Origin: Pseudomonadota bacterium
Lineage (GTDB): Bacteria > Pseudomonadota > Alphaproteobacteria > UBA2136 > UBA6156
Length of the DNA: 64,000 nucleotides
Direction: 5' to 3'
Assembly: GCA_016125035.1 (NCBI GenBank)
Contig: WGMN01000001.1
Coordinates: 193,526-257,525 of the forward strand
In this document: in pieces, positions 9,136 to 59,791 of the stretch
Layout of the letters: the number at the start of each line of letters is the position of its first letter
Position numbering within the stretch: the stretch's first letter is position 1
Notes under the pieces: model-generated
What the model was told of the DNA's origin: nothing
Database searches by the model: none
What the model saw: the letters and a program-made list of their open reading frames with translations, nothing else
Position numbers and translations under genes: made by a program

Positions 9136-9170
9136 TGTAACCCGTAACCCGGGGCCCGTAACCCGTTATG
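9136..9170. repeat. 35-nt heptamer-periodic element (CGTAACC-type, five units), flanked by the inverted repeat GCACTG...CAGTGC.
   Basis: The sequence reads tgtaacc cgtaacc cggggcc cgtaacc cgttatg. It is 34/35 identical in pattern to the copy at 57012-57046. It lies 9 nt upstream of the rlmJ start codon. Confidence 0.7.
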
Positions 9171-9230
9171 TGGCTTGTCAGTGCTGAAATTTGGGGGCAG
9201 GCTGGGCGCCTTGAAACAGGAGGAGTGAGG

Positions 9231-9653
9231 ATGGAGACTTTATATACTGCGAAAGCCAGCGCCACTGGAGGCCGCAACGGCAAGGCCGCGACAAGCGACG
9301 GCAGGCTGAAGGTTTTGCTGACGCACCCGGTGGCCCCCGGTCGGCCGGAAGTGGGCACCGACCCGGAACAGCTTTTTGCCTGCGGTTATGCGGCGTGCTT
9401 TGGCGGCGCCACCGAGTTTGCCGCCAAGCAAAAGGAGGTGGAACTGACGCAGCCGGTACAGGTGGACAGTGAGGTGAGTTTGCTGAAGAAGCCGGATGTG
9501 GGCTTTACGGTTGGGGTGAAACTGACGGTGCATTTGCCGGGCATCAAACAAAGTGTAGCCGAAGAAGTGGTGGAGTTGGCACACACCATTTGCCCTTATT
9601 CCAATGCGACGAAGGGGAATGTTGCCGTTGAGACGGTGGTTTTGGCAGGTTAG
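9231..9653 (+). CDS. ohr: Organic hydroperoxide resistance protein, OsmC/Ohr family.
   Basis: The N-terminus METLYTAKASATGGRNGKA matches Ohr, as do the EQLFAAGYAACF-like and cysteine motifs. A strong SD, aggagg, precedes the ATG. Confidence 0.85.
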   Translation: METLYTAKASATGGRNGKAATSDGRLKVLLTHPVAPGRPEVGTDPEQLFACGYAACFGGATEFAAKQKEVELTQPVQVDSEVSLLKKPDVGFTVGVKLTVHLPGIKQSVAEEVVELAHTICPYSNATKGNVAVETVVLAG

Positions 9654-9711
9654 GAGGTCTTTCGCAAAGCCGTGCGGGAGGAGGGCTTGTCCCGGACAGC
9701 AGGCGGGGCCC

Positions 9712-9736
9712 CGAAAAATGTATAGGACATTTTTCG
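9712..9736. terminator. Bidirectional hairpin between the convergent genes ohr and asnB.
   Basis: A perfect 10-bp inverted repeat, cgaaaaatgt/acatttttcg, encloses a 5-nt loop. Confidence 0.5.
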
Positions 9737-9783
9737 ACCCACCTAGCTTCCGGGATGACAGTCCCCCGGCCAGTGCTTGTGAG

Positions 9784-11523
9784 TTAACGGTGCCATTCTT
9801 CCGACAGGGTTTGCCACGATTGGCCCTGGACGTGGATGGCGTGCCAGAAGGCCAGCAGGGTGAGGCTGAGCGCCAGGTTGGCGGACTTGGCGTGGGCGAG
9901 GTTGCCGAGCAGTTTTTCAGCCGCGTGGGGGTGGAGGATTTGGGTGAGGATGGGGCTGGTTTGCCAGAGCGCGGCGAGGCGCTCTTTTTTATGGGCGAGG
10001 AAGCTGCCCACCGCCACCGAGAAGCCCTGCTTGCGCGCCCAGGCGAGTTGCGACTGGCCTTGCGCGGCGAGGTGCTGGCGCAGGATGAGCTTGCCGGCAT
10101 CTGGGCGGACTTTGAATTCATCCGGCAGCGAGAAGGCCCATGCGGCGAAGGTGTCATCCAGGTAGGGCACGCGGCCTTCGATGCCGTGAGCCATGGTGGT
10201 GCGGTCTAGCTTTAAGAGCAGGTCGTTGGGGAGCCAGCCCGCGACATCCTGCCCCTGGCGGCTTTGTAGTTTGGTGAGGCCGCGGGTGGGCCAGGGTTGC
10301 TCTGGCGGCGGAGGCGTGGAGACGTTGATCTGGAACAGCGACTGGAAGGGCGCGGCATCGCCGCTGCGGCGGGCTTTGAAGTAGCTGAGCAGGTTGGGCT
10401 TTTTGCGGTAGGCCGGGTAGCCGGCGAGCATTTCATCACCGCCCTCCCCCGAGAGCAGGATCTTCACGTCCTCACGTGCGCGGGCGGTGAGCTTGAGCAG
10501 TGGCAGGGCGGCGTAGTCTGTCGCCAGGTCATCCATCGCCCAGGCGAGTTTGGGGAGCATTGGCCAGAAGTCGGATTCATCATAGGGCACGGTGGTGTGG
10601 GTGGCGCCGATGCTTTGCGCGAACGAGGCGGCGATATCGGCCTCATTCACCCCGCCTGCCACCATGATGCGCGCGGTGTAGGCGTGCACCGGGGCGCCTA
10701 AGCTCCGCATGGCGAGGGTGACGGCAGTGCTATCCAGCCCGCCGGAGAGCAGGATGCCGTAGGGGACATCGGCCTGCAGGTGGCGGCTGACTGCGGCGGT
10801 GAGCTGCTCGTTGAAATCGTGATTCGTTATTCGTGATTCGTTATTCGTAACTGGGTTGAGGGGGGGCAATTTACGGCGGCGCATGATGATCTTGCCGTGG
10901 CGGACGGTGAGCCTCTCGCCCGGCAAAAGGCGGTGGATGTTTTTGAACAGCGTTTGGCTGCCGGTGGAGTAGTGCCGGTTGAGCAGTTGCGGCAGCACCG
11001 TGAGGTTGGGCTCGGCGCGCACCCAGCCGGCGGCGAGGATGGCTTTGGGCTCGGACGCGAAAATGAAACCGAGATTGGTTTCGGCATAATAAAGCGGTTT
11101 GATGCCGAAGGGATCGGTGGCGAGGTAAAGCGTTTCTGTTGCGCCATCGGCCAGGGCCAGGGCGTACATGCCCTGTAGCTCTTCCAGCGCCCCTTCCCCG
11201 ATTTGGGTGAAGCGGTGCAGGGGTGGTTCGCTATCCGACGCGGTGTGCAGGCGGGCGCCGTTTTGGGTGGCGAGGGTTTGCAGCGCTTTGTAGTTGTAGA
11301 TTTCGCCGTTCACCACGATGGCGGTTTTGCCTGCGACAAGGGGTTGGCGGCCGCCCGAGATATCGATGATGGAAAGGCGGCGGTGGGCGAGGCCGAGGCT
11401 GGCGTGGGTGAAGGTGCCTTCGCCATCTGGCCCGCGGTGGGCCAGCGCGGCGAGCAAAGGGGCCAGATGTTTGGCCGTGGCCTTTTGGCTTTTGATGAGA
11501 CTGACGCCGGCGATTCCGCACAT
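9784..11523 (-). CDS. asnB: Asparagine synthetase (glutamine-hydrolysing).
   Basis: It begins MCGIAG, the N-terminal Cys nucleophile. It has the glutamine amidotransferase class-II domain plus the synthetase SGGLDS motif. An embedded heptamer element encodes TNNESRITNHD. Confidence 0.85.
   Translation of the reverse strand: MCGIAGVSLIKSQKATAKHLAPLLAALAHRGPDGEGTFTHASLGLAHRRLSIIDISGGRQPLVAGKTAIVVNGEIYNYKALQTLATQNGARLHTASDSEPPLHRFTQIGEGALEELQGMYALALADGATETLYLATDPFGIKPLYYAETNLGFIFASEPKAILAAGWVRAEPNLTVLPQLLNRHYSTGSQTLFKNIHRLLPGERLTVRHGKIIMRRRKLPPLNPVTNNESRITNHDFNEQLTAAVSRHLQADVPYGILLSGGLDSTAVTLAMRSLGAPVHAYTARIMVAGGVNEADIAASFAQSIGATHTTVPYDESDFWPMLPKLAWAMDDLATDYAALPLLKLTARAREDVKILLSGEGGDEMLAGYPAYRKKPNLLSYFKARRSGDAAPFQSLFQINVSTPPPPEQPWPTRGLTKLQSRQGQDVAGWLPNDLLLKLDRTTMAHGIEGRVPYLDDTFAAWAFSLPDEFKVRPDAGKLILRQHLAAQGQSQLAWARKQGFSVAVGSFLAHKKERLAALWQTSPILTQILHPHAAEKLLGNLAHAKSANLALSLTLLAFWHAIHVQGQSWQTLSEEWHR
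10818..10852. repeat. 35-nt heptamer-periodic element (CGTGATT/CGTTATT-type, five units) inside the asnB CDS, in frame.
   Basis: The units are cgtgatt cgttatt cgtgatt cgttatt cgtaact. On the coding (minus) strand it translates to ...TNNESRITNHD... without a frameshift. Confidence 0.75.
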
Positions 11524-11556
11524 ACCCAACGGTATAGGCGGAATCGGCGCGGACGT

Positions 11557-12912
11557 CTAGCGGCTGAAGCTGCGGCGCGGGCGACCGCCGAAGGAGCGGT
11601 TGCCGCCACCGCCGTGGCTGTTGCCGTGGGTGCGCCCGCCCTGGTGTTGGCCCTGGCCGCCGCCGCTGTTGCCGCCGTGGTTACCCTGCGAACGTGCCGG
11701 GCGTTGGCCGCGCTGTTTGGGGCGGCCCGGAGGCGCCTCGGCGGAGACGATGCGGCGGAAATCGGCCTCGGTGAAGGAGGATTCCAGGCCTTCTATCTTG
11801 CTGAAGGTGAAGGGTTTGCCCAGGCGTTTTTCGATATCGCGCAGCAAGGGGAGATCGGGCGGGGAGACCAGCGAGATGGCCACGCCCACCGCGCCGCCGC
11901 GGCCGGTGCGGCCGATGCGGTGGGTGTAGTCTTCCGCCAGGTTGGGAAGATCATAATTGATGACGTGGGAGAGGTTCTTCACGTCGAGCCCGCGTGCGGC
12001 GACGTCGGTGGCCACCAGCACCTTGAGGCGCCCGGCGTGCAGACTATCCAACGTGCGCTTGCGTTGGTTCTGCTTCATGTCGCCGTGCAGGGCGCCGGTG
12101 GAGAAGCCTTGCTGTTGCAGCTTTTTGGCCAGCCTATCCGCCCCGTGCTTGGTGGCGGAGAAGATGATGACCTGGTCGACATCGTTTTGCTTGAGCAGGT
12201 GCGAGAGCATGTTCTGCTTATGGTCGGTGTTATCCACATGGAAGACGTGCTGGGTGATGGCCGAGTGGTCTTGCTTGGCGGCGGCGAGCTGGGCGCGGTG
12301 CGGATTTTGCAGGGTGCGCGAGGCGACCTTTTCCACCTCGGGGCTGAAAGTTGCCGAGAACAGCAGGATTTGCGGGCGCGAGGGCAGCGCGGCGATGATC
12401 TTTTCCACCGGTTTGAGGAAGCCCATGTCGAGCATGCGGTCGGCTTCGTCGAGCACCAGGACTTCCACGCGGGAGAAATCCACGCGCCGTTCGTTCATGT
12501 GGTCGATGAGGCGGCCGGGGGTGGCGACGAGGATATCCAGCGGCCGGGAGAGCAACTGGTACTGCGGGCCGTAGCCCACCCCGCCGATGACCACCCCGCT
12601 GCGCACGGAGAGGTGTTTGCCGAAGAGTTTGAGGTTATCCATGCATTGCTGGGCAAGTTCCCGCGTAGGCGTAAGCACCAGCACGCGCGGGCCGTGGCCC
12701 TGGCGGGCGCTGGGGCCGGAGACGACGCGTTGCAGGCACGGCAGCACAAAAGCCGCCGTTTTGCCGGTGCCGGTTTGCGCGCAGGCCATGACATCCTTGC
12801 CCTGCAAAATGGCCGGGATGGTTTGCGCCTGGATGGGGCTGGGCGCGGTGAAGCCGGCATCTTGAATAGCCTGGAGGATGGCAGGCTTGAGGTTAAACGA
12901 CGTGAAGCTCAT
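11557..12912 (-). CDS. rhlE: ATP-dependent DEAD-box RNA helicase (RhlE-like) with an RGG/Gly-rich C-terminal tail.
   Basis: The Q motif, Walker A AQTGTGKT, DEAD, SAT and HRIGRTGR motifs are all present. The C-terminus is low-complexity and rich in G, R, N and Q. Confidence 0.9.
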   Translation of the reverse strand: MSFTSFNLKPAILQAIQDAGFTAPSPIQAQTIPAILQGKDVMACAQTGTGKTAAFVLPCLQRVVSGPSARQGHGPRVLVLTPTRELAQQCMDNLKLFGKHLSVRSGVVIGGVGYGPQYQLLSRPLDILVATPGRLIDHMNERRVDFSRVEVLVLDEADRMLDMGFLKPVEKIIAALPSRPQILLFSATFSPEVEKVASRTLQNPHRAQLAAAKQDHSAITQHVFHVDNTDHKQNMLSHLLKQNDVDQVIIFSATKHGADRLAKKLQQQGFSTGALHGDMKQNQRKRTLDSLHAGRLKVLVATDVAARGLDVKNLSHVINYDLPNLAEDYTHRIGRTGRGGAVGVAISLVSPPDLPLLRDIEKRLGKPFTFSKIEGLESSFTEADFRRIVSAEAPPGRPKQRGQRPARSQGNHGGNSGGGQGQHQGGRTHGNSHGGGGNRSFGGRPRRSFSR

Positions 12913-13172
12913 GGCTATGAGACCTTATGTTGGTGCGGCGCTCTGGCCCAAAGATGGCCATTGGCTGCGGGTTGTGGGCGCCTGGACCTTACGTAAGGTT
13001 CTTGAAGTGCTGGCGGTGATATGGGGGGCGAAGCGGCAAAAGGCAAGCCCCATATGCATTTATTTGAAAAAATGTGTGTTTTAGTAAGAAATTTGCCCCC
13101 CAGGGGCTGGCCTTTTGGCTGCGCGTGGGCTACAAGGGCGCCGACAACAGCCAGACTTAGGATTGAAAGACC

Positions 13173-14993
13173 ATGCGCGAAAAGACCCGGAACATTGCCA
13201 TTATCGCCCACGTGGACCATGGGAAGACCACGCTTGTGGACGCGCTGCTGAAGCAGACCGGCACCTTTGCCAGCAACGAAAAAGTGGCCGAGCGCGCCAT
13301 GGACAGCAACGACATTGAGCGTGAGCGCGGCATTACCATTTTGGCCAAGACCACCAGCATTATGTACAAGGATTACCGCATTAATGTGGTGGACACCCCC
13401 GGGCACGCCGACTTTGGCGGCGAGGTGGAGCGCATTTTGGGCATGGTGGATGGTGCCGTGCTGCTGGTGGACGCCGCCGAAGGCCCCATGCCGCAGACCA
13501 AATTTGTGCTGGGCAAAGCCTTGCAGCTGGGCCTGAAGCCGATTTTGGTGGTGAACAAGATTGACCGCGGCGACGCGCGCCCCGACGAAGTGGTGAACGA
13601 GACCTTTGACCTGTTTGACAGCCTGGGCGCCGACCACGACCAGCTGGACTTCCCCATTTTATACGCCGTGGGCCGCGATGGCTGGGTGAGCAAGGATGCG
13701 AAGGTGAAGGGAGATAACTGCTTCCCCCTATTGGACCTGGTGCTGGAGCATGTGCAGGCGCCGCAGGGCGATGCCACCGCGCCGTTTAAGATGCTGGTGA
13801 GCATGGTGGAGCGTAATGAGTTTGTGGGCCGGATCGTGACCGGGCGCATCTTCTCCGGCAGTGTGAAGAAGAACATGCCGATTAAGGCCATGGACCGCAA
13901 CGGCGCGGATATTGACCGCGGCAAGGTGGTGCAAATTTTCGGCTTCCAGGGGTTGAAGAAGGTGCCGGTGGACGAAGCCAGCGTGGGCGACATTGTGGCC
14001 ATTGCCGGGCTTGGCAACGCCTACGTGAGCCACACGCTGTGCGACACGAGCGTGAATGAGCCCCTGCCCGCTGTGGCGATTGACCCGCCGACCTTGATGA
14101 TGACCTTTAGCGTGAACGACAGCCCCCTTTCCGGACAGGAAGGCAAAAAGCTGACCAGCCGCGAAATTGGTGCGCGTTTGTTCGCCGAAGCCGAGACCAA
14201 CGTGGGGTTGATTGTGGAGCAGGGTTCCACCACCGAGAGCTTTAAGGTGATGGGGCGCGGTGAGTTGCACCTGGGGGTGCTTATTGAGACCATGCGCCGC
14301 GAGGGGTTTGAGCTGAGCATTTCCCGCCCGGAGACCATCTTCCGCGAAGAGAACGGCGTGAAGCTGGAGCCTTATGAAGATATCATCGTGGACGTGGATG
14401 AGGCCTACAGCGGTGTGGTGATGGAGAAAATGGGCCTGCGCCGCGCCGAGATGGTGAATATGATCGCCGACCACCATGGTAAGCAGCGCCTTATCTTCGT
14501 GGGGCCGAGCCGCGGGATGATCGGTTACCGCAGCGAGTTTTTGACCGACACGCGGGGCACCGGTGTGTTGACGCGCCAGTTTAAGGAATATGGGCCGCTG
14601 AAGCAGCTGAGCGGAGGGCGCCGCAACGGCGTGCTGGTGAGCATGGCCAATGGGGTGAGCACGGCGTACATTTTGAACGAACTGGAAGCGCGCGGGACGT
14701 TGTTTATTGGCGACGTGGTGACCGTTTACGATGGGATGATTGTGGGCGAAAACAGCCGCGAGGATGATTTGGAAGTGAACCCCACGCACGCCAAGAAGCT
14801 CTCCAACGTGCGTGCCGCGGGTAAGGACGACGCGATTAAGCTGACGCCGCCCAGGGACATTACGCTGGAGTACGCGCTGACCTATATTCAGGACGACGAG
14901 CTGGTGGAGGTGACGCCGAAGAACATCCGCCTGCGCAAGCGCGGGTTGGATGCGCATAGCCGCAAGAAGTACCGCCGGGAAGCGGGTAATTAA
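13173..14993 (+). CDS. typA: Translational GTPase BipA/TypA.
   Basis: The N-terminus is [19 protein letters not shown], followed by [14 protein letters not shown]. The length is 606 aa. Confidence 0.95.
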
Positions 14994-26630: not shown

Positions 26631-26636
26631 CAAAAC

Positions 26637-49517: not shown

Positions 49518-50285
49518 ATGGGGATGAGGTGCTTTGCGATTTTACTGGCTTTGGTCATGCCGTTGGCCGCCCATGCGGCGGTGCCGGCCAGCGGCCGGGT
49601 GGCCAAGGTGATTGACGGCGACACGGTGGTTTTGGCCAGCGGTGAGCATGTGCGCCTTTTGGACATAAACACGCCGGAGATTGGGCACGATGACGAACCG
49701 GATGAACCGGGTGCGCGTGCGGCCAGTGTGGCGCTGCGGAACATGGCGCTGGGCAAGGACGTGAAGCTGGTTTACGGCCCGCAGGAGTACGACCAGTATG
49801 GACGGCTTCTGGCGCATCTTTATTTACAGGACGGAAGTTGGGTGAATGGGGAGCTTGTGGCGCAAGGTTTGGCGCATATTTACACCTTTGGCGACAATGA
49901 ATTGAAAACCGCGCAGCTTTTGCCGCTGGAAGAGAAGGCGCGGGCAGAGAAAAAAGGGTTGTGGGCGCTGCCGCAATGGCGCGTGTTTGATGCGGCAAGT
50001 TGTTGTGGGGACGGGGAAATTGGGCGGTATATTCTGGTGAAAGGCAAGCCGTTGGCGGTGGTGGTTAAAAAGGATGAGACGTATTTTAACTTTGGGCCGG
50101 ATTTCCGCACTGATTTTACCGTGGAGGTGGAAAAGAAGGACATGCGCTGGTTCAAGAAAGCCGGAATTAAGGATTTGGCGGCTTATTATGGCGGCAAGGA
50201 GCTGCTGGTGCGCGGCAAAACCGCGCCGGTGAACGGCGTTTTGATGCGGGTGACGCACCCCGCGCAGATTGAAATTGTGGAATGA
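49518..50285 (+). CDS. Secreted thermonuclease (staphylococcal nuclease/SNase homolog).
   Basis: A signal peptide MGMRCFAILLALVMPLAAHA is followed by the SNase motifs VIDGDTVVL and VRLLDINTPE. Its stop lies 4 nt before the mutS start. Confidence 0.85.
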   Translation: MGMRCFAILLALVMPLAAHAAVPASGRVAKVIDGDTVVLASGEHVRLLDINTPEIGHDDEPDEPGARAASVALRNMALGKDVKLVYGPQEYDQYGRLLAHLYLQDGSWVNGELVAQGLAHIYTFGDNELKTAQLLPLEEKARAEKKGLWALPQWRVFDAASCCGDGEIGRYILVKGKPLAVVVKKDETYFNFGPDFRTDFTVEVEKKDMRWFKKAGIKDLAAYYGGKELLVRGKTAPVNGVLMRVTHPAQIEIVE

Positions 50286-50289
50286 TATC

Positions 50290-52998
50290 ATGGCAGTAGC
50301 GGATAGCCCGGTGATGAAGCAATACCAGGCGGTGAAGGCACAGTACCCGGATGCGGTGGTGATGTTTCGCATGGGAGATTTTTACGAGATGTTTGGGCCG
50401 GATGCTTTGCAAGCATCTGAAATACTGGGGATAACTTTGACCAAGCGGCGCACCGCGCAGGCGGGAGATGAGGGCGTGCCGATGTGTGGCGTGCCCTACC
50501 ATGCAGGTGAGGGGTATATTGGCAAGTTGTTGAAACATGGCGTGAAAGTTGCGCTGGCCGAGCAGGTGGAGAGCCCTGAGGCGGCCAAAAAAGCGCGGGG
50601 TTCCGCCGCCATTGTGCGGCGGGAGGTGGTGCGGCTTTATACGCCGGGGACGCTGACGGAAGAGGCTTATCTGGTTGATAAGACGCCAAGTTATTTAGTG
50701 ACGGTGTGTGACGACAGAGGGGCGGCAAAAGGCGGCGAAACGCTGCAAAACGCTGCAGTGGAGCGGCAAAAAGGCGGCAACGGCGCGGCGGCAGGCGGCG
50801 GAACACTGCAAAGCGCGGCGGCGCGCTGGGAAGGTGTGGTGGCGTGGCTGGATGTTTCCACCGGAGAAGTGGGGTGGCGCAGTGTGACCGGCGCGAGTTT
50901 GCCGCAGGTGCTGGCGGCGCTGCCGGTGGGCGAGACGGTGGTGCCGGGCACGCTGGAAGACACCGTGTGCGCGTGGCTGCCGCGGCGCCAGGTGAGTGTG
51001 CATGACGGCTTGTTTGCGCGCAGCAGCGCGGAGAGTGCCCTGGCGCGGGCTTATGGTGTGCAGGAAGTGGGTGGATTAGGCCTGACCAGCCCCCACGCAG
51101 TGCAGGCGGTGGGCGCGCTGGTGGGTTATGCCGAATTGACGCAGATGGGCAAGTTGCCGCGCCTGATGAACCCGCGCGAGGTGAGTGGGCGCGCGCGGCT
51201 GGCGATGGATGTTTCCACGCGCAGGAATTTGGAACTGACCGAGAGTTTAAGTGGGCGGCGTGCCGACAGTTTGCTGGGTGTGCTGGACCGCACCGTGACC
51301 AGTGCGGGCGGGCGTTTGCTGGGGCGTTGGGTGGCCGAGCCGTTGGCGAATGTGGGAGAGATAAAGGCGCGGCAGAATGCCGTGGGTGTGCTGGGGCAGG
51401 GTGACAGGGTCTCAGGATCTCAGGATCTCAGGGGGCGGGTGCGGGAGTTGCTGAAGGACACCGGCGATGTGGCGCGTTGTGTGAGCCGGTTGTTGCTGGG
51501 GCGTGGCGGACCAAGGGACCTGGCGGTGTTGCGCGGCACCGGTGCGGTGCTGCCGGAGCTGGCCAAGGTGTTGCAAGGATGCGAAGGATTGCTGGCTGAG
51601 CAGGCGGTTGGGCTGAACGGATTGGGCGAGCTGACCGCGTTGCTGGAACGCGCGCTGGCGGATGACCCCCTGCCCGCGCTGGTGCGCGATGGTGGGTTTA
51701 TCCGCGAGGGGTTTGACGGGGAGTTGGACGGCTACCGCAAACTTTCCACCGATGGCAATGCGTTGCTGGCGGCACTGGAAGAAAAGGAAGCGCGCGGTTG
51801 CGGCATGGGGGCCAAACTGCGTTTTAACCAGGTGTGGGGGTATTATCTGGAAGTGACCAAGGTGCAGATGGGCGGGGGGAAAACCCCTGACCATTGGGTG
51901 CACCGCCAGACCACCACGCAAACCCACCGCTACACCACGCCGGAATTGATGGTGTTGGAGCGCGAGCTGGGCAGCGCCGGGGCCAAGGTGCAGCGGCGCG
52001 AAGAAGAGCTTCTGGCCGAACTTTTGGAAGCGGTGAAGGCAGCCAGTTATGCGCTGCTGGCGGCGAGTGAGGCGTTGGCGGTGCTGGATGTGGTGGCCAC
52101 GCTGGCCGAGGTGGCGGTGCGGCTGGGCTGGATTTGCCCGCTGGTGGATGACAGCGAGGCCTTTGCGGTTGAGGGCGGCAAGCACCCGGTGGTGGCCGCG
52201 CGGGTGAGCGATTTTGTGGCCAACGGTTGCGACTTGAGTGGTGGCCAGTTGTGGTTGCTGACCGGCCCGAACATGGCGGGGAAGAGCACTTTTCTGCGCC
52301 AGAATGCGTTGATCCTGATCCTGGCGCAGATGGGGAGCTTCGTGCCCGCAGTGAAGGCGCATGTGGGCGTGGCGGATGCGGTGTTCTCCCGCATTGGTGC
52401 GGCGGATGACTTGGCCGCCGGGCAGAGTACGTTCATGGTGGAGATGGTGGAGACCGCGGCGATTTTGAACCGTGCGACCAGCCGCAGTTTGGTGATTTTA
52501 GACGAGTTGGGGCGGGGCACCGCCACCTATGACGGGTTGGCGATCGCGTGGGCGTGTGTGGAAGACGTGGCCGGGCGCATTGGTTGCCGCACGCTGTTTG
52601 CCACCCACTACCATGAGCTGACGGCGTTGCAGGCGACGTTGGAGCGCGTGAGTTGCTGGCAAGTGGCGGTGCGGGAATGGAAGGGGGAAATTGTTTTCCT
52701 CCACGAGGTGAAGCCTGGTGCGGCGGCGGGGAGTTACGGTGTGCAGGTGGCGAAGCTGGCGGGGGTTCCGCAGGGTGTGGTGGCGCGGGCACAGGGGTTG
52801 CTGGATGGATTTTTGAAAGTGGCGCATGGGCGGGGAGTGGCGCGCGTGGATGAGCTGAGTTTGTTTGCCGCGCCGGTGCGTGCGGCGGCGCGTGAGGAGA
52901 ATGAGATTGAGAAGCGGTTGAAGGGGATGGATGTGGATGGGTTGAGTGCGCGCGAGGCGCTGGAGGAGCTTTACCGGTTGCGGGGGATGGTGAATTGA
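50290..52998 (+). CDS. mutS: DNA mismatch repair protein MutS.
   Basis: The N-terminus is PVMKQYQAVKAQYPDAVVMFRMGDFYEMF. It has the Walker A GPNMAGKST and STFMVEM motifs, and a C-terminal dimerization region. There is a low-complexity insertion after the mismatch-binding domain. Confidence 0.95.
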   Translation: MAVADSPVMKQYQAVKAQYPDAVVMFRMGDFYEMFGPDALQASEILGITLTKRRTAQAGDEGVPMCGVPYHAGEGYIGKLLKHGVKVALAEQVESPEAAKKARGSAAIVRREVVRLYTPGTLTEEAYLVDKTPSYLVTVCDDRGAAKGGETLQNAAVERQKGGNGAAAGGGTLQSAAARWEGVVAWLDVSTGEVGWRSVTGASLPQVLAALPVGETVVPGTLEDTVCAWLPRRQVSVHDGLFARSSAESALARAYGVQEVGGLGLTSPHAVQAVGALVGYAELTQMGKLPRLMNPREVSGRARLAMDVSTRRNLELTESLSGRRADSLLGVLDRTVTSAGGRLLGRWVAEPLANVGEIKARQNAVGVLGQGDRVSGSQDLRGRVRELLKDTGDVARCVSRLLLGRGGPRDLAVLRGTGAVLPELAKVLQGCEGLLAEQAVGLNGLGELTALLERALADDPLPALVRDGGFIREGFDGELDGYRKLSTDGNALLAALEEKEARGCGMGAKLRFNQVWGYYLEVTKVQMGGGKTPDHWVHRQTTTQTHRYTTPELMVLERELGSAGAKVQRREEELLAELLEAVKAASYALLAASEALAVLDVVATLAEVAVRLGWICPLVDDSEAFAVEGGKHPVVAARVSDFVANGCDLSGGQLWLLTGPNMAGKSTFLRQNALILILAQMGSFVPAVKAHVGVADAVFSRIGAADDLAAGQSTFMVEMVETAAILNRATSRSLVILDELGRGTATYDGLAIAWACVEDVAGRIGCRTLFATHYHELTALQATLERVSCWQVAVREWKGEIVFLHEVKPGAAAGSYGVQVAKLAGVPQGVVARAQGLLDGFLKVAHGRGVARVDELSLFAAPVRAAAREENEIEKRLKGMDVDGLSAREALEELYRLRGMVN

Positions 52999-53604: not shown

Positions 53605-55227
53605 ATGGCGATTTTGAAGAATTCGGTGATTGTTTCCGTGTGGACGGTGGTGAGCCGTTGGCTTGGGTTTGCGCGGGACTTGCTGATCGCCAACAAGCTG
53701 GGGGCGACGGATGCGGCGGACGCCTTTTTTATTGCGTTGATGCTGCCGAACTTGTTCCGCAGATTGTTTGCCGAAGGGGCTTTTAATGTGGCGTTCGTGC
53801 CGATTTTGGCGCGGCACAAGGGGGTAAGCCAGGAAGAAGCGATGCGCTTTGCCAACGCGGCCTTTAGCTGGCTGCTGCTGGTGGTGAGTATGGTGACGGT
53901 GGCAGGCGTGATCTTCATGCCCGTGCTGGTGATGGTGCTGGCCAGTGGCTACGCCGCCCTGCCCGCCAAGTTTGCGCTGGCGGTGGAGCTGGGGAGGATC
54001 TGCTTCCCGTATTTGGGGCTGATTACCGTGGCGGCTTTTTTGGGCGCGCTGTGCAACACCTTTGGCAAGTTCGCCGCTTATGCGATGGTGCCGGCGTTGT
54101 TGAATATTTCCATTTTAGTGTGTTTGTTTGCGCTGCCCGGGATGGGCGCCGACCCGGCGTGGGCGGCGGCGTGGAGCATACCTCTGGGAGGGATCGCGCA
54201 GGTGGCCTACATGCTGTGGGCGGCGCGGCGGCTGGGGCTGGACCTGACCCTGGCGTGGTTGCCCAGGCACGCAGACCTGCGCACGTTGCTGGTGCGTTTG
54301 GGGCCCGCGGTGGTGGGAGTGGGCGTGCTGCAGCTTTCCATCATTATTGACAACAGTGTGGCCAGCCACCTGCCCGGCACCGCCGTGACCTACTTGCAGT
54401 TTGCCAACCGTTTTTACCAGCTTCCGCTGAGCGTGGTGGGCATTGCGGTGGCCACCGTGCTGTTGCCCGAATTGGCGGTGCTGCTGGGCAAGGGCGACAA
54501 GAAACAGGCGGCCAGCACCTTTACCGATGCCCTGGCAGGGTGTTTGGTGATTGCGCTGGGCGCGGCGGTGGGGATGTTTATTTTAGCGCCGGAGATGATG
54601 GAGGTATCGCTGGCGCACGGGGCCTTTACCCCCGAGGCGGCGCGGATGAGCGCGTGGGCGATGATGGCGTTTGTGGCAGGGTTGCCGGCCTACATTGTGA
54701 CCAAGGTGACCGCGCCGGCGTTTTTTGCCAGCGGCGACCCGGTGCGCCCGGTGAAGGCCAGCGCCGTGGCGCTGGGGGTGAACCTGGTGATGAACATTAC
54801 CGTGCTGCTGCTGGCACAGCGTTATGGCTTTGAGAATGTGGCGCACGTGGGGATTGCGGCCTCCACCGCCGTGGGCGGCTACGCCAACGCCGCCTTGCAG
54901 TGGCATTGGCTGAACCAGCGCGGCGTGCTGGAGATTGACCGGCCCAAGTTTGGCCGCGATGTGGTGAAGATGCTGGGTGTGGCGGGGGCGTTGGCAGTGG
55001 TGCTGGTGTTGGGGAAAGTCTTCCTCCCCTACAATGCGGACTGGTTGCTGGTGGTGCGGATTGTATGGCTGGGTGCGATGATGGCGGTGGGCGGAGCGGT
55101 GTTTGCCGGGGCGCTGGAAGTGAGCGGGCTGATTAGCCTGCGCGCGCTGGCCCGGCGGGTGCGCAACCGGCGCAAGGTTACTTTGCCCGGCGCGGCTTCT
55201 GGTGGTTCCGGCGGGGCGGCGCTTTAG
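53605..55227 (+). CDS. murJ: Lipid II flippase MurJ (MviN).
   Basis: The N-terminus is ILKNSVIVSVWTVVSRWLGFARDLLIANKLGA, followed by LPNLFRRLFAEGAFNVAFVP. It has 14 TM helices. Confidence 0.9.
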   Translation: MAILKNSVIVSVWTVVSRWLGFARDLLIANKLGATDAADAFFIALMLPNLFRRLFAEGAFNVAFVPILARHKGVSQEEAMRFANAAFSWLLLVVSMVTVAGVIFMPVLVMVLASGYAALPAKFALAVELGRICFPYLGLITVAAFLGALCNTFGKFAAYAMVPALLNISILVCLFALPGMGADPAWAAAWSIPLGGIAQVAYMLWAARRLGLDLTLAWLPRHADLRTLLVRLGPAVVGVGVLQLSIIIDNSVASHLPGTAVTYLQFANRFYQLPLSVVGIAVATVLLPELAVLLGKGDKKQAASTFTDALAGCLVIALGAAVGMFILAPEMMEVSLAHGAFTPEAARMSAWAMMAFVAGLPAYIVTKVTAPAFFASGDPVRPVKASAVALGVNLVMNITVLLLAQRYGFENVAHVGIAASTAVGGYANAALQWHWLNQRGVLEIDRPKFGRDVVKMLGVAGALAVVLVLGKVFLPYNADWLLVVRIVWLGAMMAVGGAVFAGALEVSGLISLRALARRVRNRRKVTLPGAASGGSGGAAL

Positions 55228-55852
55228 GTTTGAAGGCGGCCCAGCCGCCAAGCAGGGCCAGGATGACCGCCATGGCCAGCCACTGGATGGCGTAGCTGAG
55301 GTGGCGCAAGGGCAAAGGCAGGGCCGGCGGTTGCGCGACGGTGATGCCAGGTGTGGGGGTGGTGGTGAAGAGGTAGCTGGGGCCTAAAGTGGCGCTGGTG
55401 ATGAGACTGGGGTTGAGGAAGGCAAGGAGTTTGGGGTTGGTGGTGATATCGGGCCCGTGGAGCCAGCCGTGGCGTTGGGGAAAAGGTTGCGGAATGCCCT
55501 GCAAGGTGACGGTGCCGGAGGTGGTGAAAGAGGTGAAATCAGGGGCGGAAAGCGGCGAAGGGGTGGCGGGGGACCAGCCGCGGTCGATAAGCAGGGTGCC
55601 GGACGCGGCGGTGAGCGGTGTGAGGATGCGCCAGCCGATCTGCTCGGCGTTTTGGGGGTTGGGGCTGTTGGTGAGAGCCACGGTTTGGCCGTTGGCGAAA
55701 GTGCCGGTGACGGTGGTGGGCGGGCGGGCGGAAAATTCCGCCGCCTGGGCCAGGCGCTGGTGGTAGCGCGACCATTGCCAGTGGGCCAGGGCCAGCAGGG
55801 AGGCCTGTGCCGCGAGGAAGGCACAAAGCAGAAAAAGCTGTTTGCAGCGCAT
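55178..55852 (-). CDS. surf1: SURF1-family cytochrome oxidase assembly protein.
   Basis: An N-terminal TM plus LALAHWQWSRYHQ matches the GxWQxxR-like motif. The C-terminal YAIQWLAMAVILALLGGW motif and second TM are present. Its 3' end overlaps murJ by about 50 nt. Confidence 0.75.
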   Translation of the reverse strand: MRCKQLFLLCAFLAAQASLLALAHWQWSRYHQRLAQAAEFSARPPTTVTGTFANGQTVALTNSPNPQNAEQIGWRILTPLTAASGTLLIDRGWSPATPSPLSAPDFTSFTTSGTVTLQGIPQPFPQRHGWLHGPDITTNPKLLAFLNPSLITSATLGPSYLFTTTPTPGITVAQPPALPLPLRHLSYAIQWLAMAVILALLGGWAAFKPKAPPRRNHQKPRRAK

Positions 55853-57008
55853 GACGTACGTTGAGACATCTGCCAAGCTGTGGCAAGCTTACACAACAAA
55901 ATTTGAAGGGGAAGCCTTGGACGCACACGAACGCCGCGCGTTGCTACTGACTGCCGTTGTGCTGGGCGGGGCGGTGCTGTTTTTGCACGCGGTGAGCGAT
56001 ATTCTGCTGCCCTTTATTGTGGGGCTGCTGCTGGCCTACCTGCTGAACCCGGCGGTGGGCTTTTTGGAGCGGCGCGGCGTGCCGCGCGCACTGGCCAGCG
56101 TGGTGCCGGTGGGTGCCGCCGTGGCCTTGATTACCGCCGTGCTGGTGCTGGGCATGCCGCTGCTGATGGACCAGTTGAGCAGTTTTGCCCAGCGTCTGCC
56201 GGTTTACCTGATGACGTTGCAGCACTTTGTGATACCCGACAAGTTAAGCCGCGCCCTGCACTGGGACATGGACTTTGTGGCGTTGTTAAAGCCCCTGGGC
56301 ACCATTGGCGCGCAGGGCGCCGAGTGGACGGTGCAGGCGCTGCAAAAAACGCTGAGCGGTGTTGCCTGGCTGGTGAACGTGGCATTGTTGGTGCTGATGA
56401 CCCCGGTGGTGGCTTTTTATCTGCTGCTGGACTGGCCCAAACTGATGGAGAAGATTGTGAAGTTGTTCCCCAAGCGCTGGCGCCGCAACCTGCTGGAGAT
56501 TAACCGCGAGATTGACGTGAAGCTGGCCGCTTACCTGCGCGGCACGGTGGCGGTGTGCCTGAGCATGGCGCTTTATTACAGCCTGGCGCTTTCGTCCATT
56601 GGCATTGTCTCGACCTGGATGCGCGGCACGCCGGTATCCTCGCTTGAATTGGGCTGGGCGATTGGGATCGCTACCGGAGTGATGGCCTTTTTGCCGGTGA
56701 TCGGCGCGACCATTGGCGTGACCATGATGTTTGCGGTGGCGCTGATGCAGTACCAGTTGCTGGTGTGGGAGCCTTATGCGCTGATCGGCGGGTATTTTAT
56801 TGTCGGCCAGTTTTTGGAAGGCTACGTGATGCAGCCCTTGCTGGTGGGCCAGCGCGTGGGCCTGCACCCGCTGTGGGTTATTTTTGCCCTGCTGGCCGGG
56901 GGCACGCTGGCGGGCATTACCGGCATGTTGCTGGCGGTGCCGGTGGCGGTGGTGTTCTCGGTGTTGTTGCCGCGTTTGTTGCGCCAGTGGCGGGCGGCGA
57001 TAGATTAA
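55842..57008 (+). CDS. AI-2E family transporter (UPF0118/PerM-like).
   Basis: It has 8 TM helices and conserved motifs for the PerM/YhhT family. Confidence 0.8.
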   Translation: MQRMTYVETSAKLWQAYTTKFEGEALDAHERRALLLTAVVLGGAVLFLHAVSDILLPFIVGLLLAYLLNPAVGFLERRGVPRALASVVPVGAAVALITAVLVLGMPLLMDQLSSFAQRLPVYLMTLQHFVIPDKLSRALHWDMDFVALLKPLGTIGAQGAEWTVQALQKTLSGVAWLVNVALLVLMTPVVAFYLLLDWPKLMEKIVKLFPKRWRRNLLEINREIDVKLAAYLRGTVAVCLSMALYYSLALSSIGIVSTWMRGTPVSSLELGWAIGIATGVMAFLPVIGATIGVTMMFAVALMQYQLLVWEPYALIGGYFIVGQFLEGYVMQPLLVGQRVGLHPLWVIFALLAGGTLAGITGMLLAVPVAVVFSVLLPRLLRQWRAAID

Positions 57009-57011
57009 GAA

Positions 57012-57046
57012 CGTAACCCGTAACCCGTGGCCCGTAACCCGTTGGA
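57012..57046. repeat. 35-nt heptamer-periodic element (CGTAACC-type, five units).
   Basis: The sequence reads cgtaacc cgtaacc cgtggcc cgtaacc cgttgga, nearly identical to the copy at 9136-9170. It lies 3 nt after the AI-2E stop and 10 nt before the four-helix-bundle gene start. Confidence 0.7.
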
Positions 57047-57056
57047 GCTTTGAAGG

Positions 57057-57449
57057 ATGGCAGGTGAAAAATTAGGGTTTGCCAAGAACTTTGAAGATTT
57101 ACTGGTTTTTAAGCGGGCTTACAAAACTTCATTGGAAATACACCGCACAACTCTGACCTTTCCGGCCGCGGAACAACGCGGACTTGGTGAACAGATGCGG
57201 CGTGCCAGCAAAAGTATATGTGCCAACCTTGCAGAAGAGTTCGGTAAGGGGTCGGACAGTGCAGAGATGCGGCGGTTTACGCGCATTGGCTTAGGCTCTA
57301 GCGAAGAGATGAGGGTTTGGTTGCGTTACTGCCTGGACTTAAGACTTATTAATAAGACTGAGTGGCAAATGTGGCGCGACGAATACCACGCTATAAGCCA
57401 AATGTTACAAAAACTTATTGGGGCTATCAAAGCACCGGCTAAAAAATAG
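57057..57449 (+). CDS. Four-helix-bundle protein (TIGR02436 / 23S rRNA intervening-sequence protein family; Avd-like).
   Basis: The N-terminus has FEDLLVFKRAY, followed by RRASKSICANLAEEFGKGS, the typical family pattern. GC is lower than in the flanks. Confidence 0.7.
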   Translation: MAGEKLGFAKNFEDLLVFKRAYKTSLEIHRTTLTFPAAEQRGLGEQMRRASKSICANLAEEFGKGSDSAEMRRFTRIGLGSSEEMRVWLRYCLDLRLINKTEWQMWRDEYHAISQMLQKLIGAIKAPAKK

Positions 57450-57555
57450 TTGGTCGGGCGTTTGGCTGAAAGTTTGAGCAGGGTTGGCACCATATGCGGT
57501 TGGAGCCGCGGCCTAACCGGGGGTATAGTAAGCCAGCGTTGAAAGAAAGATAACC

Positions 57556-58152
57556 ATGCCGACGTTTTTGGGCTTTTTGAAGAACACCGTGACCGGTGAG
57601 GAGTTTGTGGCGCCGGTGGAAGCGCCCGAACGCGCCCGCGCCGAAGCAGGATTGCGCGACCAGTACCCCGCCGCGGCCTATGCCATTTTGACGGTTTACG
57701 AGCAGCGCGAAATGGAGCGCGTGATGGACGGTGTGCGGCGCTGGCCGGGGCTGGCCAGCAAGGTACAGCCCAAACTGGAAGATTTGTTTGCCAATGTGAG
57801 TGTGGCCCGCGCCCTGCCACCGCTGCACGGCCGCGCGCCCACCAAGCTGAACGCCACCCAAGCCCGCCTGGAACAAGTACGCACGATGGCGCGGGGCACG
57901 CACAAGGGCGTGCAGGAGTTGGTGGCGCGCCTGCTGGCCGCCGACCTGCAGGGAGATATCCGTTCCGCCAAGCCGGACAGCCATGCACGGATGGAGACGG
58001 TGAGCGACGCCCGGCCCAAGGCCAAGGTGCCTGCGGCGCCGGCGATACCCCCGGTGGCAATGGCCCCCCTGCCCGCCCCCGCCGCGCGGCAAGCCGCGCA
58101 GGCCGAGCGGCCCAGCCTGATTACCATGCTTAAGCAGATGAAGCAGGCTTGA
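57556..58152 (+). CDS. Hypothetical protein (198 aa) with an Ala/Pro-rich C-terminal region.
   Basis: The ORF is intact with a plausible -10 (tatagt) and RBS. No family could be assigned. Confidence 0.45.
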   Translation: MPTFLGFLKNTVTGEEFVAPVEAPERARAEAGLRDQYPAAAYAILTVYEQREMERVMDGVRRWPGLASKVQPKLEDLFANVSVARALPPLHGRAPTKLNATQARLEQVRTMARGTHKGVQELVARLLAADLQGDIRSAKPDSHARMETVSDARPKAKVPAAPAIPPVAMAPLPAPAARQAAQAERPSLITMLKQMKQA

Positions 58153-58155
58153 AGC

Positions 58156-58692
58156 TTGGGTAGAAAATACCTGCTGGTTCCCATCCCCAAAAATCCCTAC
58201 TCCCGTATAGGCCCACTGCGATGGCAGGATTGGTGGCGCCAGGTGGAAAAGACCTCATCGCTGGCACGAAAGCTAAAGGCCGAAGGCCATGAAACGTGGG
58301 TGGTGTTGCTTTCAGACTTCAAGCCTCGCGGAAAGTTGCCAGAGCTAGAGATTTACCAGCAGGCCTTTGCCCAGGTAGCCCCGGAACTTGAGGTGAAAGC
58401 GTATCGCGAAACCAACGATACGCTGGGCCAGGTGGAACGCAGCCTTGAGTTGCGCGATAAAGAACAGGCGGTGCTGGTTTTCGTCAGCGCGTGGATGCAG
58501 TATCCGCGGGTTGTCTACCTGGCCCGCAAAGAAGGCGCACGCCATTATGGCGTCTTCGGTATTCCCCAACCGGCCTTTGCGTTGATAGACCCTTTTTGCA
58601 TGCTGACCTACCCTTTGGTGGAATGGCTTGGGTTGGGCAGGTTTTTCCAGCGTATTCTTTTAAGACGGCGTGAAGAGGGCCGTATTCTCTAG
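58156..58692 (+). CDS. DUF218 (YdcF/ElyC-like) domain protein.
   Basis: The pattern is WVVLLSD...EIYQQAF...RETNDTLGQ...LVFVSAWMQYPRVVYLARKEG. This resembles the DUF218 core (SEA..M, sT.eN, VTsa.HmpRa). GC is lower than in the flanks. Confidence 0.45.
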   Translation: MGRKYLLVPIPKNPYSRIGPLRWQDWWRQVEKTSSLARKLKAEGHETWVVLLSDFKPRGKLPELEIYQQAFAQVAPELEVKAYRETNDTLGQVERSLELRDKEQAVLVFVSAWMQYPRVVYLARKEGARHYGVFGIPQPAFALIDPFCMLTYPLVEWLGLGRFFQRILLRRREEGRIL

Positions 58693-59750
58693 ACTTCATC
58701 CAGGCGGATGATGTGGGCGTGGGGCAGGGCCGGGGCCTCGGTATCGGTGAGCCAGACCTGGCAGCCGAGTTTGCCCAGGGTGGTGAGGAGCTGGCCGCGG
58801 CGCGCGGCATCCAGGTGGGCGGAGAACTCATCGATAAGAACCACCGGGGGCTGTTTAAGATGCGTCTTAAGCAGTTGGACGTGCGCCACCAGCCAATGGA
58901 TGAGGCCGCGCTTGTGTTGGCCGGAGGAAGCCTGCGCGAGTGTGGTGGTGGTGCCGTCTTCCAGCGTGAGGTGGCCGGTGACCTCCAGCGTGTTGGGGCC
59001 GGCGTGGGTGCGCTCCATGCGTGTGTCGATGTCGCGCGACCTTTCAAACTTGCCTTTGAGCGCCATGACCGGGTCGGCGTCCTCTAGGACCGCCAGCGCG
59101 TTACCGGCCAGCTGGAGCGTGAGAGAGCTGCCCAGGTGGGGCACCAGCGCGGCCAGATATTCTTGCCGGTGGCGCAACACCTGGATACCCCATTCCGCGC
59201 AGAGTTTCTCTTCAGCTTCCAGCCAGTCGTCGGCGCGGCCCTGCACCAGCAGCTTTAAGCGCGCCTGGCGGTGCTGGGCAAAGCGCGCCACCGCCTGTGC
59301 GTGGGCGGGGATGAGCGCGGTGGTGGCATCATCCAGCCAGCGGCGGCGCCCGGCGGGTGGGCCGGAAAAGAGGAAATCGGTGGCGGGGGTGAGCCACAGG
59401 ATGGTGTGGAGTTTGGCCAGGCCTTCCAGCGCCTGTTTGTGCCCGTCGACGTGGAGGAGGCGCTCGGCCTTGCGGAAGGTTTGGCCGATTTCGTGATCCG
59501 TGATTCGTGATTCGTGATTGGTGAACGCGGCCCACAGGCCCCATTCCTTCTGGCCGTGGCGGATTTGCGCTTTGCCTTCCGCACCCAGCAGGCCGCGGGT
59601 GGGGGTGAACAGCGACAAGGCCTCCAGCACAGAGGTTTTGCCCACGCCGTTGGGCCCCACCAGCGCCACCACCGCGGCGTTTTGCGGCACCGCAAGGGTG
59701 AGTGCCGCAAGGTTGCGGAAGTTGCTGAGCTTAAGCTGGGTGACGGCCAT
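58689..59750 (-). CDS. recF: DNA replication and repair protein RecF.
   Basis: It has Walker A GPNGVGKTSVLEA, the ABC signature and D-loop. It is collinear with E. coli RecF. An embedded heptamer element encodes TNHESRITDHE. Confidence 0.9.
   Translation of the reverse strand: MAVTQLKLSNFRNLAALTLAVPQNAAVVALVGPNGVGKTSVLEALSLFTPTRGLLGAEGKAQIRHGQKEWGLWAAFTNHESRITDHEIGQTFRKAERLLHVDGHKQALEGLAKLHTILWLTPATDFLFSGPPAGRRRWLDDATTALIPAHAQAVARFAQHRQARLKLLVQGRADDWLEAEEKLCAEWGIQVLRHRQEYLAALVPHLGSSLTLQLAGNALAVLEDADPVMALKGKFERSRDIDTRMERTHAGPNTLEVTGHLTLEDGTTTTLAQASSGQHKRGLIHWLVAHVQLLKTHLKQPPVVLIDEFSAHLDAARRGQLLTTLGKLGCQVWLTDTEAPALPHAHIIRLDEV
59492..59526. repeat. 35-nt heptamer-periodic element (CGTGATT-type, five units) inside the recF CDS, in frame.
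   Basis: The units are cgtgatc cgtgatt cgtgatt cgtgatt ggtgaac. On the coding (minus) strand it translates to ...FTNHESRITDHEIG.... Confidence 0.75.
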
Positions 59751-59756
59751 AAAAGA

Positions 59757-59791
59757 CGTTACTCGTGATTCGTGATTCGTGACTAGTGGTT
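59757..59791. repeat. 35-nt heptamer-periodic element (CGTGATT-type), beginning 7 nt upstream of the recF start codon.
   Basis: The units are cgttact cgtgatt cgtgatt cgtgact agtggtt. It occupies the position where a recF ribosome-binding site would be expected. Confidence 0.7.

Follow-up and report, generated by a model that had tools for sequence, protein, structure and literature searches.

Short heptanucleotide repeat arrays in an alphaproteobacterium-like genome and their association with S23p genes

Introduction

Tandem arrays of 7-nt units have been described in several bacterial groups, and here we analyse five such arrays in a 64-kb stretch of DNA (62% GC; positions 193,526 to 257,525 of the 461,513-bp contig WGMN01000001.1) from the metagenome-assembled genome of an uncultured 'Proteobacteria bacterium'; this stretch is referred to throughout as the window. 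One of the five directly precedes a gene for S23p, the '23S rRNA intervening-sequence protein' (PF05635). In the Coxiella burnetii intervening sequence (IVS), which is regarded as selfish, two or three GACAGAT units plus one degenerate unit stand before the S23p open reading frame (ORF) (Warrier et al. 2016, PMC4990558). This IVS has a 28-bp inverted-repeat stem that RNase III cuts at the first repeat, the number of units differs between Coxiella strains, and in Xanthomonas S23p forms a homopentameric toroid (PMC4990558).

Other heptamer systems are known by their repeats. TAACTGA repeats are found in marine Beggiatoaceae, cyanobacteria and Bacteroidetes, a distribution across phyla that is unexplained (MacGregor 2015, PMC4679880). 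They stand in two to six copies, a few nucleotides upstream of starts that mostly have no Shine-Dalgarno sequence; because one strand carries stops in all three frames, ORFs contain them in the reverse orientation only (PMC4679880). Geobacter metallireducens has a four-heptamer GGACCGG element in 49 copies, in and between genes, and a five-heptamer MTYCTGA element at 15 sites (PMC2700814). The GGGNATC and GGGGAYT arrays of Xanthomonas and Nostoc prefer about four units, lie near the starts or ends of ORFs and are transcribed, and these G-rich heptamers form quadruplexes (PMC4692102). For the heptamer repeats near the starts of Nostoc recF and recO, an unidentified partner has been postulated (bioRxiv 10.1101/2022.06.06.494920). 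More generally, heptamers are the commonest long simple-sequence repeats (SSRs) in many high-GC, non-cyanobacterial genomes, according to the summaries of Mrazek 2007 in PMC4679880 and PMC4692102.

Heptamer arrays in the window

The five loci (Table 1) are short heptanucleotide simple-sequence arrays that we place, with high confidence, within the known class of bacterial heptameric repeats. With equal confidence, they comprise two related unit families, CGTGATT and CGTAACC, which have a GTRA core in common. Tandem Repeats Finder reported period-7 arrays at all five positions given in a first-pass annotation of this DNA, and an independent period scan agreed; array 2 was reported as a 14-mer in 2.3 copies. 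The annotation had also held that the arrays were not due to chance, and this was confirmed using 200 second-order Markov simulations as the null model for the period scan: four arrays in the window score at least 10, whereas the simulations gave 0.18 on average and never more than 2, and period 7 alone is enriched. The degenerate 19-mer CGTGATTCGTNAYTCGTRA, derived from the CGTGATT type, has 4 matches in the window versus 0.00 expected, and CGTRAYY-CGT junctions number 11 on the + strand and 0 on the other. As in other heptameric SSRs, the 7-nt units lie head to tail and the arrays exceed the expectation based on composition. No further copies were found in the 64-kb window.

The arrays are less regular than was first described. 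Each had been said to contain exactly five units and, although heptamer arrays are real at every locus, only 3-5 units per locus are recognisable, the outer ones matching the consensus at 3-5 of 7 positions. Arrays 1 and 3, both of the CGTAACC type, had been called 34/35 identical; they agree at 30 of 35 positions, or at 30 of 31 across the common core GTAACCCGTAACCCGKGGCCCGTAACCCGTT. Runs of identical adjacent units reach three at most, and every array is interrupted. The statement that the arrays are not palindromic holds: they are direct repeats with no self-complementarity and no target-site duplication, and RNA folding of the array regions is weaker than that of shuffled sequence (z +0.7 to +1.9). 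The leaders of start codons that contain arrays are likewise less stable than their shuffled versions (z +1.3 to +1.9). An Rfam scan of the window found two tRNAs only, with no family at the arrays and no rRNA.

An assembly artefact was ruled out. A 4.5-kb Logan contig from a second assembly of the same sample (L001; DNA of relatives and other loci is labelled in this way, L001, L002 and so on) is identical to the window sequence, the reading frames are open, and analogous arrays occur in relatives (see below). A role as promoter or terminator was also rejected; consensus scans found nothing at the arrays, and the hairpin beside array 5 is the dnaN terminator and does not belong to the repeat. 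The units resemble the 3' end of 16S rRNA (GAUCACC, GGUAACC), but chance alone should produce six-base matches to an RNA of 1.5 kb.

Arrays before start codons and within genes

All three intergenic arrays (1, 3 and 5) end 6-10 nt before an ATG, a placement that the first-pass annotation had missed, although it had proposed that location relative to start codons be examined. Array 1 lies in the 104-bp spacer between the divergent rlmJ and osmC genes, its low-coordinate end 8 nt before the rlmJ ATG (9127, - strand) and its other end 62 nt from the osmC ATG (9232). The resulting rlmJ leader consists of GGUUACG repeats without a Shine-Dalgarno sequence; two relatives conserve the start of rlmJ. 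Array 3 begins 3 nt past the stop codon of a perM-like gene and stops 10 nt short of the S23p ATG. Array 5, between the dnaN terminator hairpin and recF, stops 6 nt short of the recF ATG (59750, - strand), and the recF leader reads AGUCACG AAUCACG AAUCACG AGUAACG ucuuuu AUG, again without a Shine-Dalgarno sequence. Among the three array-adjacent starts, only that of S23p is preceded by a Shine-Dalgarno-like GGAG. At 30 of 31 positions the S23p leader, (CGUAACC)n, and the rlmJ leader, (GGUUACG)n, are complementary, which is either a by-product of copying or a hint of trans pairing.

The remaining two of the five arrays lie in frame inside coding sequence, which had also been overlooked. Array 2 encodes VTNNESRITNHD in a linker of asparagine synthase, at the boundary between the glutaminase and synthetase domains, and array 4 encodes TNHESRITDHE in a variable loop of RecF after the conserved WGxWA motif. 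Both repeat-coded stretches are contained in public protein records (P0241 for asparagine synthase). Heptamer repeats can therefore overwrite internal linkers of essential proteins without breaking them. In both genes it is the AATCACG strand that is read as sense. On the opposite strands (CGT GAT TCG TGA; CGT AAC CCG TAA) every frame contains a stop codon, and the orientation of arrays inside genes is thus forced.

As 7 is not a multiple of 3, a change of one unit would shift the frame in recF or asnB, and the arrays could then be phase-variation (contingency) loci, in which gain or loss of units frameshifts these genes or tunes recF and rlmJ. Heptamer tracts reported to tune promoters in Haemophilus and Vibrio and the variable unit number in Coxiella strains (PMC4990558) are in line with this. 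However, the tracts are short and interrupted, with no more than three identical units in a row, so slippage should be infrequent; the host genes have housekeeping functions and are neither surface nor virulence genes; and the second assembly of the same sample (L001) is identical. We consider phase variation highly improbable and reject it on sequence grounds, there being no long perfect tract.

Orthologous sites in relatives

Comparison of orthologous loci, another step that had been proposed at the outset, revealed arrays at some sites and none at others among the relatives. The relatives identified by RecF are alphaproteobacterium-like metagenome-assembled genomes sharing at most 66% identity with the window protein. 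The RecF loop has 5 residues in about 20 orthologues versus 11 in the window, and L002 has (AGTCACC)n exactly at the site of array 4. At the same site L148 has only a two-unit proto-repeat, CTCACCA CTCACAG. In the window, array 4 abuts a native CTCACC, and the net gain in recF is 9-18 nt. In the dnaN-recF spacer, where the window has array 5, L151 has a decayed AATCACG AATTACG array, and L002 and L152 have Shine-Dalgarno sequences before recF instead of an array.

Two further repeats were seen in L002: its dnaN-recF spacer contains a 33-nt unit repeated 2.3 times, and its recF has an extra loop encoded by an 8-mer array (ACCTGGCT, 4.4 copies) (L002 intervals 7099-7174 and 7987-8021, respectively).

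At the asparagine synthase locus, 12 repeat-coded residues stand where 30 orthologues have an unrelated variable linker of similar length. In the DNA of the nearest relatives (L286 and L287; 71-74% protein identity) there is no array at this site, only TCAC at its edge, and the exchange is one of 36 nt for 36 nt. At locus 1, L286 and L287 have an unrelated 24 nt where the window has 42 nt including the array. Array 3 and the adjoining S23p gene are absent downstream of perM in L002, L149 and L151, and three relatives, 63 kb altogether, contain no heptamer arrays.

Arrays 1-3 are thus absent in close relatives, and more distant relatives have different or decayed heptamers at the recF sites. 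Some sites appear to have been hit repeatedly. These comparisons indicate that the arrays are lineage-specific patches that overwrite sequence, rather than simple insertions.

The S23p cassette

The product of the gene that follows array 3 is an S23p protein, a four-helix bundle, with E values of 7e-26 for PF05635 and 8e-25 for TIGR02436. S23p (PF05635) proteins are relatives of the retroelement protein Avd. A homologue of known structure (PDB 2gsc) has five chains. The GC content of the gene is 0.47, compared with 0.62 for the window, and the gene is missing from the same spot in relatives, from which we infer that it was acquired horizontally. The cassette lies outside rRNA, flanked by the perM-like gene and a hypothetical gene. 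For a target-site duplication there is only an 8-nt direct match, GTTGGAGC, possibly due to chance.

The closest homologues (62-72% identity) are also low-GC genes, in DNA of 0.61 GC, with 3-4 heptamers directly before the start (ATCAGTA, CGTGATR or GTAACGA) and, as in the window, no 3' arm. Their locus is a different one, with a GATase gene on one side and an rluB-like gene on the other. Low GC content, absence from three relatives and the different locus of the homologues together indicate that the S23p gene behaves as mobile. Contigs with close S23p homologues are mostly short (0.5-3 kb), as is expected if S23p genes are in repeated or rRNA regions, where assemblies break.

Heptamer arrays beside S23p genes in metagenomes

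Three loci that had been selected for arrays, from three phyla (L134, L062 and L127), have an S23p homologue between a forward and a reverse array. For an unbiased sample, S23p loci were collected from metagenomes and viral contigs by means of the back-translated protein motif CANIAEG; the 130 ORFs with the motif included 90 that were S23p-like by profile, in 651 kb of sequence. A period-7 array is found just upstream of the S23p start in 29/79 cases (37%) and downstream in 29/84 (35%), the latter beginning mostly 2-60 nt past the stop codon; the corresponding numbers for periods 6, 8 and 9 do not exceed 5. The flanks of S23p genes make up 7% of the 651 kb and hold 63 of the 108 period-7 arrays, an 8-fold concentration. 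Arrays are present on both sides of 17 S23p genes, and in 12 of these 17 they form inverted pairs. Among the 40 S23p genes flanked by arrays, 17 are inside 23S rRNA genes, and are therefore classical IVSs, and the other 23 are outside.

The repeat units vary from one S23p locus to another. Within a locus, 18 of 21 arrays that lie outside the S23p flanks have the same unit as the flanking arrays, versus a background of 7.6%. A general role for the arrays before S23p in which stops in every frame would lead to re-initiation was rejected, since 18 of the 29 upstream arrays have no stop in the sense strand.

In several metagenomic rRNA operons, the 23S gene lies between arrays of a single unit family that are complementary in orientation, and arrays of this family also form the arms of the S23p IVS (an example is included in Table 1). 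These flanking arrays look like RNase III processing stems.

No paper generalising the link between heptamers and PF05635 was found in a literature search that left out most subscription journals. The link is partly anticipated by the Coxiella IVS and is a lead worth following; if it is causal, S23p together with RNase III would be testable for two old puzzles, the role of heptamer repeats and the role of S23p.

The CGTGATT unit beyond this genome

The 19-mer pattern was found in 25 stretches in IMG/VR and at least 120 in GTDB with one genome per species. Among the matches listed, the CGTGATT unit is present in more than 20 phyla, the hosts including Chloroflexota, Acidobacteriota, Burkholderiales, Xanthomonadales, Verrucomicrobiota, Bacteroidota, Gemmatimonadota, Planctomycetota and others. 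In 1.16 Mb of matched loci there are 212 period-7 arrays, compared with no more than 11 of any other period, and about half of them are of the seeded unit. The arrays elsewhere range from 22 to about 290 nt (median near 37), contrary to the fixed length of 35 nt proposed from the window. Related arrays often form inverted pairs, separated by 7-90 nt or by about 400 nt. In 24 of 177 arrays the stop-free strand is followed, at a distance of 0-12 nt, by an ATG that opens an ORF of at least 100 codons, versus 4.2% of control positions (p = 5e-7); in the same set of arrays the stop-containing strand has no significant excess of start codons. No paper reporting a CGTGATT/AATCACG array sequence was found, again with most subscription journals outside the search.

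The virus-like contig L024 (IMGVR_UViG_3300037195_001448, 394-6749) has eight heptamer arrays in 7 kb, with GGTGTCG/GGTGTCA units plus one of the AATCACG type; they are in or near intergenic regions and some abut start codons. Several CGTGATT arrays in Bryobacterales (L056, L081, L107 and L137, chromosome OZ242366; also L075 and L144) have common flanks, aaaAGCCGTGATTCGTGA...CGTGAaaaacc, and these conserved flanks suggest a larger repeated element that contains the array.

These loci also bear on whether the arrays act in DNA, either as a replication or recombination signal (Chi-like, a strand-specific motif) or by forming non-B DNA such as a G-quadruplex. All five arrays of the window are co-oriented on the G-rich strand, in a window where the GC skew is strongly positive (0.09-0.25) throughout the 64 kb with no switch, and G-rich heptamers of Xanthomonas and Nostoc do form quadruplexes (PMC4692102). 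However, two of the five orientations are dictated by reading frame, and the agreement of the remaining three is weak evidence. Across many phyla the orientation of 121 arrays has no relation to local GC skew (64 vs 57, p = 0.59), so the orientation bias relative to replication that the first-pass annotation had raised was not found, and a replication-strand bias is rejected. Neither the CGTGATT nor the CGTAACC unit contains any G run, which means that a quadruplex cannot form. An explanation at the level of DNA is, in our view, barely credible.

Origin, placement and possible roles

The reading that we favour, though doubt and belief are about evenly balanced, is that the arrays may be tolerated, template-copied repeat patches belonging to the repeat system of S23p genes and IVSs. 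On the evidence of sequence comparison, the patches would have overwritten roughly 12-40 nt of earlier sequence in a lineage-specific manner. The likeliest route would be copying with other arrays as template, in which short matches served as primers and replication slippage came afterwards; native TCAC, present at both the recF and the asnB site, is a candidate for such a match. The reservoir would be the repeat arms of S23p (PF05635) cassettes, putative selfish intervening-sequence elements in which the ORF typically would lie between heptamer arrays that pair into a stem cut by RNase III. Array 3 would then be the 5' repeat arm of the S23p cassette in the window, and array 1 a near-exact solo copy of this arm. 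The imperfect 31-nt core that loci 1 and 3 have in common argues for copying over independent growth, and so favours the first-pass suggestion of a templated repeat.

The positions of the surviving arrays could reflect selection, which would remove harmful copies and leave those at tolerant positions. Two kinds of place would be tolerant. One comprises the final 6-10 nt ahead of a start codon; there the Shine-Dalgarno region would be replaced and the leader left unstructured. The other is a surface linker of a protein, where the stop-free strand would have to be the sense strand and only a length that keeps the frame would be allowed. The arrays probably have little function for the host. A role at the level of RNA is possible, and we see three options: a leader free of Shine-Dalgarno sequence; a duplex with a complementary array, such as (CGUAACC)n of S23p with (GGUUACG)n of rlmJ, which might be a substrate for RNase III; or a putative binding site for pentameric S23p.

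Several observations weigh against the copying of patches from S23p cassettes. Array 3 has no inverted partner on the 3' side of the S23p gene (57450-57570). The window has no S23p gene with a CGTGATT arm, and three of the five arrays are therefore without a local source. S23p-like ORFs number only about 6 in 1.08 Mb of DNA selected for arrays, so that most arrays are not beside an S23p gene. The 18 of 21 cases of unit sharing stem largely from rRNA operons, which make up 6 of the 9 loci, and are less telling for arrays in mRNA leaders. The Coxiella S23p ORF is apparently unexpressed and decaying (PMC4990558). Finally, the proto-repeat at the recF site of L148 fits growth by slippage in place, without a donor.

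The last point leads to the main rival, slippage in place without donor or function. The arrays would then be plain neutral microsatellites, produced by polymerase slippage on units of about 7 nt, as Mrazek proposed, from local proto-repeats, and the neighbouring S23p gene would be coincidental. This is possible, though doubtful. Period 7 is dominant in every data set; L148 provides an example of a two-unit proto-repeat; units differ at orthologous sites (AATCACG and AGTCACC at recF; ATCAGTA, CGTGATR and GTAACGA at S23p); units of 8 and 10 nt also occur in mutS of this genome; and the literature summarised in PMC4679880 gives support. Microsatellites leave unexplained, however, the imperfect arrays that are 30/31 identical at two unrelated loci, the presence of one unit at three loci of the window and in more than 20 phyla, the replacement in asnB without change of length, and the 8-fold concentration near S23p genes.

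Alternatively, the arrays could be operators of a post-transcriptional regulator. A ring-shaped RNA-binding protein, for which pentameric S23p is the candidate with one protomer per heptamer, would control recF, rlmJ and its own gene, and the copies in coding sequence would be by-products. The placement of the three intergenic arrays, two of them at starts without a Shine-Dalgarno sequence, the enrichment before start codons across phyla, the array kept at the dnaN-recF site in L151 and array lengths that centre on 4-5 units are all consistent with operators. So are the arrays at the starts of S23p genes themselves, the pentameric ring (five chains in PDB 2gsc; PMC4990558), and the partner postulated for both TAACTGA and the Nostoc recF/recO heptamers (PMC4679880; bioRxiv 10.1101/2022.06.06.494920). 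Nevertheless, we regard this as unlikely. Both polarities occur relative to the downstream gene, the S23p leader being the complement of the rlmJ leader, and many arrays are in 3' regions, inverted pairs or rRNA spacers. In addition, the S23p ORF looks dispensable in Coxiella (PMC4990558) and the target genes have no common theme.

A wider proposal, which we also think improbable, is that heptamer arrays and S23p (PF05635) may form one system, with the arrays as the cis module of S23p cassettes, acting through RNase III stems, a pentameric S23p ring that binds one heptamer per protomer, or both. Solo copies placed beside start codons would then put host genes, recF and rlmJ among them, under its post-transcriptional control.

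Features of the window

The arrays and the genes discussed are listed in Table 1, with gene identities taken from Pfam. The dnaA-dnaN-recF genes are on the C-rich strand despite the unswitched skew, and the skew of relatives is equally strong (to -0.30 with recF set on the + strand). Two in-frame patches of other tandem repeats in mutS both coincide with lineage-specific insertions relative to three orthologues, and L002 and L151 have other insertions there.

Table 1. Heptamer arrays, genes and other tandem repeats in the window, with one metagenomic rRNA operon (L198) for comparison
Feature	Position	Strand	Details
Array 1	9136-9170	+	CGTAACC type: TGTAACC CGTAACC CGGGGCC CGTAACC CGTTATG
Array 2	10818-10852	+	CGTGATT/CGTTATT type: CGTGATT CGTTATT CGTGATT CGTTATT CGTAACT
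Array 3	57012-57046	+	CGTAACC type: CGTAACC CGTAACC CGTGGCC CGTAACC CGTTGGA
Array 4	59492-59526	+	CGTGATT type: CGTGATC CGTGATT CGTGATT CGTGATT GGTGAAC
Array 5	59757-59791	+	CGTGATT type: CGTTACT CGTGATT CGTGATT CGTGACT AGTGGTT
rlmJ	8288-9127	-	23S rRNA methyltransferase; start 8 nt from array 1
osmC	from 9232	+	Pfam
Asparagine synthase	9784-11529	-	Glutamine-hydrolysing, asnB-like; host of array 2
mutS	50269-52998	+	Carries two other tandem-repeat patches
mutS patch	50721-50780		In-frame 10-mer patch (GGCGGCAAAA, 5.8 copies, 69% matches)
mutS patch	51397-51433		In-frame 8-mer patch (CAGGGTCT, 4.6 copies)
AI-2E/perM-like gene	55842-57008	+	Pfam
S23p gene (PF05635)	57057-57449	+	Pfam, TIGR02436
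dnaA-dnaN-recF	58.7-62.6 kb	-	Pfam; dnaA 61126-62559
recF	58689-59750	-	Host of array 4, downstream of array 5; start fixed by orthologue alignment
Direct repeat	62596-62618		Perfect 10-mer (TACCTTGCTC, 2.3 copies), ~40-60 nt upstream of the dnaA start
L198 arrays	2228-2251, 2401-2432, 6075-6106		rRNA-operon arrays; likewise in L182, L227, L249 and L250

Comparison with known systems

The cassette in the window resembles the Coxiella IVS in having a PF05635 ORF with tandem heptamers directly upstream, although the unit is GACAGAT in Coxiella and CGTAACC here. It differs in that the Coxiella IVS has an inverted-repeat stem and lies in the 23S rRNA gene, whereas the cassette in the window has neither stem nor 3' arm and is outside rRNA, away from the helices 25 and 45 of the 23S rRNA gene that are the sites of S23p-type IVSs.

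The closest parallel in placement is with the TAACTGA repeats, as the window arrays also lie 6-10 nt before starts and only the stop-free strand is used in genes. However, unit and host differ, and TAACTGA copies within ORFs are at protein ends or in hypothetical proteins, whereas here they are in internal linkers of RecF and asparagine synthase. The Geobacter elements are likewise dispersed sets of 4-5 tandem heptamers, both intra- and intergenic, but they have other units and were annotated as putative regulatory RNAs or binding sites without comparison of orthologues. The long SSRs of Mrazek are similar in being tandem 7-nt units, dominant among repeats of 5-11 nt, in high-GC non-pathogens, scattered and mostly extragenic. 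They were defined statistically, and the summaries of that work mention no CGTRAYY-like family and no link to S23p or start codons.

Cyanobacterial short tandemly repeated repetitive (STRR) sequences and the GGGNATC/GGGGAYT repeats are also dispersed heptamer arrays near the ends of ORFs. To our knowledge, STRR-like heptamer arrays have been unexplained since 1990. The window arrays differ from cyanobacterial STRRs in host and in unit sequences. They differ from the GGGNATC type in that the latter is G-rich and forms G-quadruplexes, whereas the window units have no G runs and the host is alphaproteobacterium-like. Rickettsia palindromic elements, repetitive extragenic palindromes and bacterial interspersed mosaic elements (REP/BIME), Correia elements and MITEs (miniature inverted-repeat transposable elements) are small and dispersed too, and the Rickettsia elements also occur in frame within genes. 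All of these, however, are fixed units with palindromic structure or terminal inverted repeats, and the window arrays are not.

Heptamer arrays had at first seemed out of place outside cyanobacteria, but heptamer repeats are known in Xanthomonas, Beggiatoaceae, Geobacter and the Coxiella IVS. The arrays described here are not a new kind of element, and this genome represents one more lineage with dispersed heptamer repeats.

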